A DNA stretch of 64,000 bases from Chloroflexota bacterium. GTDB taxonomy: Bacteria > Chloroflexota > Anaerolineae > Anaerolineales > E44-bin32. The notes beneath the pieces were generated by a model. It worked only from the letters and a program-made list of their open reading frames with translations. It was not told the origin of the DNA and searched no databases. The position numbers and the translations under genes are program-made. Positions 3,309-37,922 of this stretch are shown here, one piece after another. The DNA lies in NCBI GenBank assembly GCA_022561215.1, contig JADFRQ010000013.1:653-64652 (forward strand), written 5' to 3'. The first letter of the stretch is position 1. Each line of letters starts with the position of its first letter.

Positions 3309-3863
3309 ATGGCCTGGATCAAGATCATCCACGAAAACGAAGCGGACGGCGAACTTAAAGCCGCTTATGCGGAACTAACCGAGCCGTGGGGCGGTGTGGA
3401 TAACATCATGAAGATCCACAGCCTCAACCCACCGTCCTTGGCGGGGCATTCCGCCCTCTACCGAACTTTGATGCGCGGCCATTCCGACCTGACAATCGTG
3501 CAGCGCGAGATGATCGCAGTTGTGGTCTCAGCGCTCAACCGCTGTCACTATTGACTGCGACATCACGGAGCGGGACTCCGTCGACAGACGCGTGACGCCG
3601 AGCTGGTCGAACAACTGATGGCGGACTTCCGTCAGGCGCCATTGAAAAGCTCAGATCGGGAGATGCTTGACTATGCCACGAAACTGACGCGAGAGCCGTG
3701 GAACATGGCGGAACAGGATGTCATCTCCCTGCGTGAAGCGGGCTTCAGCGATGAGGCAATCCTCGATATCAACCAGGTTACGGGTTACTATGCCTTCGTA
3801 AATCGGCTGGCGGATGGCCTCGGTGTTGAGCTGGAGGCGTTTTGGAAAGAGGGAAGAGAGTAG
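3309..3863 (+). CDS. AhpD-like / carboxymuconolactone-decarboxylase-family peroxidase-related protein, candidate selenoprotein (in-frame TGA at 3552-3554)
   Basis: ORFs 3309-3554 and 3618-3863 are in the same frame with no other stop between them. The joined sequence reads ...SALNRCHY-TGA-LRHHGAGLRR..., so the TGA falls on the second Cys of the family motif C-x-Y-C-x-x-HH. The C-terminal half (REPW..., INQVTGYYAFVNR) is also typical of this family. Confidence 0.6.
3565..3581 (+). promoter_or_regulatory. SECIS-like hairpin downstream of in-frame TGA
   Basis: ACGGAG-CGGGA-CTCCGT: a 6-bp stem with a G-rich 5-nt loop, starting 10 nt after the TGA at 3552-3554. Confidence 0.4.
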
Positions 3864-18675: not shown

Positions 18676-19875
18676 GTGCGCAGGAGCAGGAATTCCCCAG
18701 CGATTGAAATTGCCCTCAATCGAGCAGTTCCCCTAGGCCTTCTTTTTATGTTGGCTCTGTCGAGCTGTGGAGCAAATCTGCCCCAAGTTCCGAACCAGGA
18801 GCAACCATCTCCGCAGGAAATGCCTGATCAGGTGCCAAGTGACATTCCGCAAAAAAAACCTATTGTAGAGATTCCTTCGCTCACACCACCATCTGAACAA
18901 GGTGGGATAAACACATCATTTATCCGTGATAAGGTGACCGAAGGAAATGGAAACTGGCCCTTCGTACCACTCGACAATCCGGAATTTGTCACCGCCGATC
19001 AGGCCACGTATATCGGAGCTCTCGACCTTGTGCTCGGGGTCTCTTTGTATGGTGAAAGCAAGGCCTACCCCATCAACATGATGTGGTTTCATCATGTGGC
19101 CAATGACACGATTGGGGGTCATCCCATCGCGGTAACCTACTGAATAGTCTGTAGTTCAGGGGTTGGGTTCAACCCCGTAATCGATGGTCGAAGGTTGAAT
19201 TTTGAACTCTTTGGTCTCTACAATGCGGTGATGGTGATGAGCGACAGAGAGACGGGGAGCATATGGTCTCATATAGGGGGCACGGCCCTCTATGGGCCGA
19301 GCAAGGGAGCCCAGATGGAGCTGCTGCCACTCCAGCTTACAAGCTGGGAAAAATGGCTGGAGCTACATCCCGATACATTGGTCTTATCTAACGATACGCC
19401 TTATCAGGAATGGTACACCAACATAAGCCTTGGGAGTTCATCCCTGGGCCCCGAATTTGTCGCTAGCATTGTCTACTGGGACACGCGCCTTACGCACAAC
19501 CGCTTGGTTTTGGGTGTAACCGTTGATCAGGCATTCCGCGCCTATCCGCTCGACAGGGTTGCCGCCTCCGGCGGTGTTGTCAACGATATTTTGGCAGATC
19601 GACCTGTTGTTGTGGTGGTAGATGATCAGAGCGTATTCTCCATTGCGTTCTCAAGGGAGATAAACGGGCAAGTGTTGAACTTCGAACGTACAGGCGCAGA
19701 TTCTCTTCAACTCGTCGATAAAGAAACTGGTTCCATTTGGAACCTCGAAGGTCTTGCAATCGATGGGCCCCTGGAGGGAGAGTCTTTGTCCTTTGTCACC
19801 TCCTTCATCACCGAATGGTATGGTTGGTCCGCCTATCATCCCGAGACCGAAATCTACGCGATCGCGAATCCTTGA
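18676..19875 (+). CDS. DUF3179-family lipoprotein, candidate selenoprotein (in-frame TGA at 19141-19143)
   Basis: GTG start after an AGGAGAGG RBS; lipobox LALSSCG. ORFs 18676-19143 and 19195-19875 share one frame with no other stop between them. The junction reads PIAVTY-TGA-IVCSSGVGF...LYNAVMVMSDRETGSIWSH, matching the DUF3179 core (TYCPLC.SG...D.ETGS.WSQ, from memory) with TGA on the first Cys. Confidence 0.6.
19159..19176 (+). promoter_or_regulatory. SECIS-like hairpin downstream of in-frame TGA
   Basis: GGGGTTG-GGTT-CAACCCC: a perfect 7-bp stem with a GGUU loop, starting 15 nt after the TGA. Confidence 0.45.
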
Positions 19876-36658: not shown

Positions 36659-36803
36659 AATTTAATGATCGTGAATGTGTCTAAAATGTATAGTTCTACT
36701 GCTGCCAATGATGAGAGAATCCCTGGATTGTTGGAAGTGGAGCAAAATTGTTGATGTCAGTGGCGTGCCCACGCAGGAGCGTGGGACAAGAGAACACCAC
36801 ACC

Positions 36804-36828
36804 GTAGGTCAGGTTTCCATACCTGACC
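36804..36828. repeat. short hairpin repeat, family B
   Basis: GTAGGTCAGGT-TTCCAT-ACCTGACC. Another GC hairpin, CCCACGC-AGGA-GCGTGGG, lies just upstream at about 36771-36788. Confidence 0.7.
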
Positions 36829-37004
36829 GGGCACAGGCGAAATCTGGATCCTTTTCTTTAGAGATTCGTAGTGTGGGAGACGCGAGCTGCAGCTTGTTGC
36901 GGTCGCCGTAGCATCTGGGAACCGGCGCAGCTTAAGGGAGAATAAAACATCTGCTCTCCGCCTGGTGATGCAGGAGGAAAAACCCTCGTTACTGTACCTT
37001 AATT

Positions 37005-37604
37005 TCAGGGATACGTTTCATCCAGGAGCACCAGGATTGCGGCTTCTGTCTGCTGGTAACCGCCTTCGCCAATGTGTTTGTAGCGAATGTGACCCTTTTT
37101 ATCAATCAGATAAAGCGTAGGCCAATAGCGGTTTTTGTAGGCCGTCCAGGTTCGCCGGTCATTGTCCTGGGTGATCGGGTAAGTGATATCAAAACGAATG
37201 AGCGCTTCCTTTAAGTTTTCAATATCACGTTCATAGGAAAATTCAGGGTAATGATTGCCGATCACGACGAGACCCTTGTCGGCGTAGGTGTTGTGCCATT
37301 CCCTCAACGAGGGAATTACGTGTTCACAGTTTATTCAACCAAAGGTCCACATTTCAAGCAGGACGACACTGCCGCGCAGATTAGCGAGACGAAGGGGACC
37401 TTGCGTGTTGAGCCAGACTTCATTCTCAATCTCGGGCGCGGGGCCATAATCGTCTAGCAAAATCGACGCACTTTCCTGAGTAACTACCTGCTCCGGAGAA
37501 TCGTCCTGGATTATCTGCGGAGCAACTGAGGGCGCGGAACAGGCAGTGAGCAGCAAACTTATTCCCAACCCGACCCAAAAATACAGGCGGTTGAGGTTAT
37601 TCAT
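37005..37604 (-). CDS. TlpA-like thioredoxin-fold thiol:disulfide oxidoreductase lipoprotein, candidate selenoprotein (in-frame TGA at 37335-37337)
   Basis: Lipobox LLLTACS after the ATG at 37604. ORFs 37335-37700 and 37005-37307 share one frame. The junction reads VVLLEMWTFG-TGA-INCEHVIPSLREWHNTYADKGLVVIG, the classic W-x-x-x-C-x-x-C redox motif with TGA on the first Cys. Confidence 0.65.
37298..37316 (-). promoter_or_regulatory. SECIS-like hairpin downstream of in-frame TGA
   Basis: On the minus strand, ATTCCCTC-GTT-GAGGGAAT: a perfect 8-bp stem with a GUU loop, starting 18 nt after the TGA. Confidence 0.45.
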
Positions 37605-37922
37605 AGAGCCTTGGCTCGAGAGCATTATTGGTTCGCGCAAAACCCCATCCTTTTCAGGTAACCTGATCGCATGGTGATAGCGAGGGTTACGTTCCAACAA
37701 AAAAGAGTATAGTCTCCTATAGTATGACGGAGAAAGATTACAAAAGGATTACGAGTTTTACGAAGAAGATCCGCATCGGAACTAGCAAGTGATCAGTGAA
37801 CAGTAAGCAGGGACGCGAATACCTGCATTTGGCCACGATGAGGCAAAAACAAAAAAGCAGCGTTGAATACGGAAGCCTGAGAAAAACCATAGATCAAAGA
37901 TTTGGTGGAGGGACTACAATCG

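Follow-up and report, generated by a model that had tools for sequence, protein, structure and literature searches.

A predicted selenocysteine-containing, lipid-anchored thioredoxin-like oxidoreductase of the DipZ-C type in an Anaerolineales genome

The gene considered here lies on the minus strand of a 64,000-nucleotide stretch of DNA (the window) from a Chloroflexota bacterium of the order Anaerolineales (GenBank assembly GCA_022561215.1, contig JADFRQ010000013.1), is interrupted by one in-frame TGA codon and very probably encodes a selenoprotein. From the list of open reading frames (ORFs) and a direct reading of positions 36800..37900, the minus-strand ORFs 37335..37700 and 37005..37307 belong to one frame that is split solely by the TGA at 37337..37335. 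The junction across this codon is GSVVLLEMWTFG-[TGA]-INCEHVIPSLREWHNTYADKGLVVIGNHYPEF, and an earlier examination of the window from its letters alone (the sequence-only reading) had described both frame and junction with every coordinate and letter correct. The complete gene occupies 37005..37604 and consists of 199 codons and a stop; its likely start codon is the ATG at 37604..37602, which would give the N-terminus MNNLNRLYFWVGLGISLLLTACS, and its terminator is also a TGA, at 37007..37005. Translation of 37604..37005 yields 199 residues with a single internal stop, MNNLNRLYFWVGLGISLLLTACS...GSVVLLEMWTFG-stop-INCEHVIPSLREWHNTYADKG...DETYP-stop, and the alignment with Cys codons described below predicts that this internal UGA is read as selenocysteine (Sec), residue 90 and the first position of a U-I-N-C motif. 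The gene callers applied to the matching public metagenomic scaffold split the gene into two, of 89 and 86 amino acids (aa). It is monocistronic, with a convergent bPH_2 gene on one side and a divergent adenylate cyclase gene on the other, and a promoter and terminator scan remained at background level. The two Cys-containing homologues whose neighbourhoods were inspected both follow a two-component system, and one of them precedes an MsrPQ-like pair.

The predicted protein begins with a basic residue, followed by a hydrophobic stretch and then by an L-T-A-C lipobox, features that by inspection amount to a lipoprotein signal peptide (37539..37604, minus strand, with the lipobox Cys22 at 37541..37539). 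Equivalent lipoboxes (LLAGC, LLTGC, LAAC) are present in the homologues P0004-P0049, in keeping with the lipoprotein signal proposed in the sequence-only reading. Lipoprotein signal peptides occur in all of the close homologues that were inspected and thus support the predicted extracytoplasmic, membrane-anchored location of the redoxin.

When the read-through product was compared with Pfam, Cys being substituted for the internal stop, it matched AhpC-TSA (47.4 bits), Redoxin (29.6 bits) and Thioredoxin_8 (29.2 bits) above their gathering cut-offs. The best solved relative is the C-terminal domain of Mycobacterium tuberculosis DipZ (PDB 2hyx/5cyy; E 1.1e-39 over residues 47-198), and this match, together with Pfam, delimits a thioredoxin-like domain of the TlpA/DipZ-C type at 37011..37466 on the minus strand. 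The C-I-N-C of DipZ aligns exactly with the [TGA]-I-N-C of the window protein, its second Cys falling on Cys93 (37326..37328, minus strand), the predicted resolving cysteine of the UxxC motif, and the wider active-site contexts are alike as well (W-x-x-C-I-N-C in 2HYX and 5CYY versus W-T-F-G-U-I-N-C). In DipZ, the thioredoxin-like domain is extracytoplasmic and joined in one polypeptide to a CcdA-like membrane domain. DipZ differs from the window protein in having Cys in place of Sec, and the window protein is a stand-alone lipoprotein with no adjoining CcdA gene. We rejected DipZ proper, i.e., the CcdA-thioredoxin fusion, as an identification, because the window protein has no CcdA domain: only the signal peptide precedes the thioredoxin domain in the 199-codon gene. 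In some of the other loci, long open frames 5' of the UGA had hinted at CcdA fusions and were dismissed as spurious read-through of non-coding DNA or as unrelated N-terminal extensions.

After DipZ, the next solved relatives are NHLRC2 (6GC1; E 1.4e-26), plant SOQ1 (7DJJ) and Bacillus subtilis YkuV (2B5X), which are homologous to the window protein at E values of 1e-26 to 1e-17 and share its C-I-N-C-type motif; these eukaryotic and Bacillus proteins use Cys, however, and the window protein lacks an NHL propeller. Proteins of the ResA type appear only after those. TlpA, ResA and DsbE (CcmG) resemble the window protein as membrane-tethered, extracytoplasmic reductases of the thioredoxin fold with a CxxC motif, but the homology is weak, no cytochrome c biogenesis genes lie nearby in the window, and the NCBIfam scores are far under the curated cut-offs (55 versus 170 bits for ResA, 26 versus 123 for DsbE and 20 versus 230 for TlpA), so that orthology with this group was rejected. 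The sequence-only reading had called the protein a TlpA-like member of the thioredoxin fold. The fold is upheld by Pfam and by DipZ, whereas the closest branch is DipZ-C/NHLRC2/YkuV and not TlpA/ResA proper; similarity of sequence thus supports a predicted TlpA-like redoxin belonging to that branch. Among the homologues, P0001 (337 aa) consists of two tandem redoxin domains with WTFGCINC in each; P0002 (339 aa) and P0003 (324 aa) are like it in length and score.

When species-representative genomes were scanned for relatives of the window gene, 80 loci were obtained, nearly all of them in metagenome-assembled genomes (MAGs) of Anaerolineales or other Chloroflexota and 50-70% identical to the window protein. 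In the 81 homologue stretches that could be aligned from these loci, the codon at the position of the window's UGA is TGC in 47, TGT in 31 and TGA in 3. The sequence-only reading had placed the TGA at the nucleophilic first Cys of a CxxC site and had proposed a look for Cys codons in close relatives; the 78 Cys codons and the DipZ alignment agree with that assignment. A direct search of the DNA of species-representative genomes found W-T-[FY]-G-TGA-I-N-C in at least 120 stretches, and the phylum labels of the matches listed, about ten in number, include Chloroflexota, Gemmatimonadota, Methylomirabilota/Rokubacteria, Binatia, Actinomycetota, Acidobacteriota, Armatimonadota and Planctomycetota, among others. 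A second assembly, made independently from the window's own population (locus L081), has the same TGA. Some of the TGA forms are short, like the window's, and others carry about 430-470 extra residues that hold NHL repeats, in an architecture that resembles NHLRC2. U-I-N-C domains fused to NHL repeats were seen at L096, L089, L124, L147 and approximately 40 further loci from Actinomycetota, Gemmatimonadota and other groups, mostly with a selenocysteine insertion sequence (SECIS) that has an AGUU loop, and among the papers that a literature search could cover, none dealt with bacterial selenoproteins containing NHL repeats. Two proteins from the Joint Genome Institute (JGI), P0042 and P0073, read W-T-F-G-W-I-N-C, i.e., the Sec TGA has been rendered as Trp. 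The gene calling behind these entries presumably used an alternative genetic code, and they would be mistranslated selenoproteins in public protein sets.

Beginning exactly 18 nt past the in-frame TGA is the hairpin AUUCCCUC-GUU-GAGGGAAU (37316..37298), which RNAfold returns as a perfect 8-bp stem with a GUU apical loop, as the sequence-only reading had described it, and which we take as the predicted core of a bacterial SECIS on the strength of its folding and of family-wide covariation (37298..37316, minus strand; stem AUUCCCUC/GAGGGAAU; UGA-to-loop distance 26 nt). It lacks the bulged U that is found in the SECIS of Escherichia coli fdhF. The predicted free energy is -9.6 kcal/mol for the hairpin alone and -13.8 kcal/mol for the 60 nt from the UGA. 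The bacterial SECIS (bSECIS) model of Zhang and Gladyshev, as quoted in PMC13188914, allows an apical loop of 3-9 nt, a stem of 4-16 bp, a UGA-to-loop distance of 16-37 nt and a minimum free energy (MFE) of -7.5 kcal/mol or lower. The SECIS modelling that had been suggested along with the sequence-only reading places the window hairpin within this published model on every count (3-nt loop with G-U at positions 1-2, 8-bp stem, 26 nt, -9.6 to -13.8 kcal/mol).

The comparative evidence for this element is extensive. Of the three TGA stretches among the aligned homologues, one has the window's hairpin unchanged and the other two differ by a compensatory change from C-G to G-C. Over a larger set of 123 distinct TGA sequences, a contiguous stem of at least 5 bp stands at the same place in 111, with 50 different 5' stem sequences; the commonest apical loops are AGUU (39), GUU (30) and GGU (22), 91 together, with rarer ones besides. 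In 119 of the 123, a G stands at the first or second loop position, and likewise in 119 the UGA and the loop are 24-26 nt apart. Within the class with 3-nt loops (n=59, including the window), 92.4% of the cells in the stem alignment are paired and compensatory double changes occur in six of the eight pairs (51 cells), while none of 500 shuffles scored as high and controls slid along the sequence were 47-59% paired. The class with 4-nt loops (n=44) gives much the same picture: 91.6% of cells paired, compensatory double changes in five of seven pairs, 0/500 shuffles as high, and 39-60% pairing in the slid controls. The hairpin claimed from the sequence alone thus covaries across more than 100 TGA orthologues.

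The hairpin overlaps coding sequence (I-P-S-L-R-E-W), and shuffling of synonymous codons was used to ask whether the protein alone enforces the stem. The Sec genes have a mean stem of 6.6 bp (at least 6 bp in 80%) as compared to 3.7 bp (14%) in their synonymous shuffles, and the Cys orthologues (n=75) have a mean stem of 3.2 bp (3%), which is near the value for their own shuffles. Because the shuffles and the Cys orthologues both have short stems, the hairpin is selected at the level of the RNA, a selection confined to genes that have UGA at this codon. We also considered whether Cys orthologues might keep a "fossil" SECIS, and rejected the idea on the same figures, their stems being near the synonymous-shuffle expectation.

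The part of the gene beyond the UGA is under strong purifying selection as an in-frame protein. Over the 100 codons past the UGA, the window and its closest TGA relatives differ at proportions of 0.14-0.20 for nonsynonymous sites (pN) and 0.72-0.95, i.e., saturated, for synonymous sites (pS), and dN/dS, the ratio of the corresponding rates, is 0.05-0.10 where computable. This argues against a pseudogene and also against termination as the sole outcome at the UGA. Sec and Cys forms are intermixed in a neighbour-joining (NJ) tree built from 119 and 74 domains, respectively, which by parsimony calls for no fewer than 11 switches between the two states. The window protein groups with Sec forms: its nearest neighbour in the set compared is L111 at 76%, followed by L199 at 75%, and the nearest Cys forms are at 72%. 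Some MAGs carry a Cys form of the redoxin together with tRNA-Sec (L342/L005 in CAZSVR01 and L391/L011 in CAVVPC01), from which it follows that Sec machinery does not force the Sec form; their existence is consistent with frequent switching between Sec and Cys.

The capacity to decode Sec was examined mainly in relatives. ARAGORN found no tRNA genes of any kind in the 64-kb window, and a tblastn comparison of E. coli SelA, SelB and SelD with the first 205 loci gave no match. A scan with a generic tRNA-Sec pattern returned 120 loci, 96 of which ARAGORN confirms, and a pattern of the Anaerolineae type returned 120 stretches; with L308 added, 121/121 loci checked have tRNA-Sec. One of the Anaerolineae-type tRNA-Sec genes shares its 8-kb stretch with a SelB that scores above the TIGR00475 equivalog cut-off (352.7 versus 242 bits). 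By matching accession prefixes, tRNA-Sec and the TGA form of the redoxin could be assigned to the same genome in three cases: Caldilineaceae HOU_bin.0074 (CALNXY01; L308 with L099), Chloroflexi NC_groundwater_777 (JACPVF01; L329 with L179), whose hairpin is identical to the window's, and Anaerolineales SCS3bin.3 (JAZGCZ01; L377 with L111). Elsewhere in the window, TGA serves as an ordinary stop, including as the terminator of the selenoprotein gene itself. These occurrences in relatives, the otherwise normal use of TGA and the further selenoprotein candidates of the window lend indirect support to Sec decoding.

Those further candidates came from a scan of the window for pairs of ORFs joined by one TGA. 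There are 82 such pairs, and beyond the gene under study only two have a coherent protein context, an AhpD-like pair and a DUF3179 pair, both of which belong to catalogued selenoprotein families; a global reassignment of TGA was rejected on this result. The AhpD-like gene (3309..3863, plus strand; TGA 3552..3554) reads ...SALNRCHY-[TGA]-LRHHG, a CxxU arrangement, and its read-through product passes the "peroxidase-related enzyme" model TIGR01926 with 141.9 bits against a cut-off of 81.8. Gene callers split it into two 81-aa genes. A possible hairpin, ACGGAG-CGGGA-CUCCGU, begins 10 nt past its UGA, although the MFE structure predicted for the 60-nt stretch is a different one. The DUF3179 gene, which is lipoprotein-like (18676..19875, plus strand; TGA 19141..19143), reads ...IAVTY-[TGA]-IVCSSG, a UxxC arrangement. 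On the public scaffold it is called as two DUF3179 genes (155 + 186 aa). Its UGA is followed after 16 nt by the 7-bp hairpin GGGGUUG-GGUU-CAACCCC (fold z = -2.1). The hairpins of both genes have a G at loop position 1-2.

The explanation that we favour, with high though not complete confidence, is that the gene at 37604..37005 on the minus strand encodes a lipid-anchored selenocysteine thiol:disulfide oxidoreductase of the TlpA-like/DipZ-C branch that would function outside the cytoplasm. The UGA at 37337..37335 would not be read as a stop during translation; instead, SelB carrying Sec-tRNA(Sec) would bind the apical G-U loop of the hairpin at 37316..37298 as the ribosome reaches the UGA, Sec would be inserted as residue 90, and translation would run on to the UGA at 37007..37005, a terminator that has no hairpin. 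The mature lipoprotein would then sit on the outer face of the membrane with U-I-N-C where the first helix of its thioredoxin fold begins, Sec90 serving as the attacking nucleophile and Cys93 as the resolving residue, and a Sec90-Cys93 selenenylsulfide forming as substrate disulfides are reduced. The direction of the redox reaction and the substrates, as implied by the word "reductase", we infer from the family, and on the same footing a transporter of the CcdA/DsbD type is probably the electron donor.

Several observations weigh against this explanation. Pfam annotation of the 64-kb window, and of a further 8.8 kb that precede it on matching ENA scaffolds, showed no selA, selB or selD, and no tRNA-Sec gene was found there either; because the ~73 kb of the genome covered in this way hold no Sec machinery, Sec decoding, and with it actual Sec insertion in the source organism, is something that we infer. 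On the single sequence, the 60-nt fold is only mildly unusual (z = -2.0; of 200 shuffles, 5 reached the same stability), and the case against a chance hairpin is therefore the comparative one given above. Rfam reported no SECIS or tRNA-Sec match, either in a gathering-threshold scan of the whole window or in an E-value scan of 37200..37420, a silence that is expected to be uninformative for short bacterial SECIS elements. Two of the closest TGA relatives, L111 (JAZGCZ010000133.1, 76%) and L120 (CAYZXF010000113.1, 71%), have a contiguous stem of just 2 bp at the canonical position, and may use a different SECIS or have one that is decaying. Finally, there is no adjacent gene for a CcdA/DsbD (DsbD_TM) partner at the window locus or at the two loci of Cys homologues.

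Other ways of accounting for the TGA fare considerably worse. An ordinary Cys redoxin might have been inactivated by a nonsense change from TGC or TGT to TGA, or the TGA might be an error of sequencing or assembly, and the splitting of the gene by gene callers, the Cys codons of most close homologues (78 of the 81 aligned stretches) and the interleaving of Sec and Cys forms in the tree all count in its favour. An isolated lesion or error would hardly recur, however, as the same TGA in at least 120 stretches of species-level genomes and in the independent assembly of the same population (L081), nor would it be followed by a covarying hairpin that the Cys forms lack and by codons under strong purifying selection; we regard this account as extremely unlikely, and it is effectively refuted by the conservation. 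Equally improbable is a division into two products, an 89-residue lipoprotein that ends at the UGA and a C-terminal protein started from the TTG at 37307, with the hairpin acting as an attenuator or in translational coupling. An ORF with that TTG start does exist, and competition between termination and recoding at a Sec-UGA is documented (PMC4513850). Such a split would sever the thioredoxin fold at its active site, though, and would place the TTG inside the hairpin, with no ribosome-binding site seen ahead of it (by eye, no scan), whereas continuity of the frame and the register of UxxC are kept in every TGA orthologue.

It is also very unlikely that the UGA is decoded as a standard amino acid (Trp, Cys or Gly), whether by near-cognate suppression or under a reassigned code. 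The storage of P0042 and P0073 as WTFG-W-INC shows that some pipelines do render the TGA as Trp, but Trp at the position of the nucleophile would kill a CxxC enzyme. TGA ends many genes of the window, the selenoprotein gene included, and wherever an in-frame TGA is plausible there, it falls on the redox Cys of a known selenoprotein family. The hairpin, moreover, has the G/GU apical loop and the spacing of a bacterial SECIS, and related carriers possess tRNA-Sec and SelB.

The window gene is, in our assessment, a real and fairly ordinary selenoprotein gene. Proteins of the thioredoxin fold with a UxxC motif are among the commonest kinds of predicted bacterial selenoproteins, and 33 of 51 families from the Global Ocean Sampling (GOS) data are homologues of thiol oxidoreductases or of thioredoxin-fold proteins. 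The catalogued UxxC selenoproteins of this fold (PMC13188914) are like the window protein in having Sec first in UxxC, many Cys homologues and a bSECIS directly downstream, and the window protein matches the same Pfam models. The motif W-T-F-G-U-I-N-C, searched as "UINC", was not found in the sequence supplements of the Sargasso Sea and GOS studies, the latter searched in part; the exemplars in the portions of these supplements that were covered read DWuTWC or HWUPYC, unlike the window's motif. The clade is without a dedicated model in NCBIfam release 20.

It is possible, though we hold the view only tentatively, that the W-T-[FY]-G-U-I-N-C clade (DipZ-C/NHLRC2-type, the NHL-fused forms included) constitutes a selenoprotein subfamily that has not been catalogued separately. 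On the same tentative reading, the clade may be widespread in lineages from soil, groundwater and sediment (Chloroflexota, Gemmatimonadota, Methylomirabilota, Acidobacteriota, Actinomycetota, Planctomycetota) and may comprise both stand-alone lipoproteins and fusions to NHL propellers. The Sec forms fused to NHL repeats in other phyla have the architecture of NHLRC2, and the fusions may be bacterial, Sec-containing homologues of that protein. Sec and Cys may have been exchanged repeatedly within the clade, and the SECIS may dictate the choice of codons in I-P-x-L-[RK]-E-W.

None of this overturns earlier knowledge, and the value of the finding lies mainly in correct annotation and in a data set on the evolution of the SECIS. 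Correct recoding restores a complete redox enzyme that is now annotated as two fragments, or with Trp at the Sec site. Taken together with the AhpD-like and DUF3179 genes, it marks an Anaerolineales-like organism as a probable user of selenocysteine with several extracytoplasmic or redox selenoproteins. The more than 100 orthologues with a SECIS in fixed register, set beside matched Cys orthologues that lack the hairpin, form a clean natural data set, which shows both the constraint that a SelB-binding hairpin places on coding sequence and the interconversion of Sec and Cys.

One further observation concerns the DNA some 2.8-3.8 kb upstream of window position 1, where a gene for a zinc-type alcohol dehydrogenase is intact (329 aa) in the assembly of one sample, L205 (6221..7210). 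In the assemblies L206 (6220..7210) and L083, from two other samples of the same population, gene calling yields just a 226-aa C-terminal gene, to which L206 adds a separate 76-aa piece; the difference could be one between strains, an error or a further recoding site.

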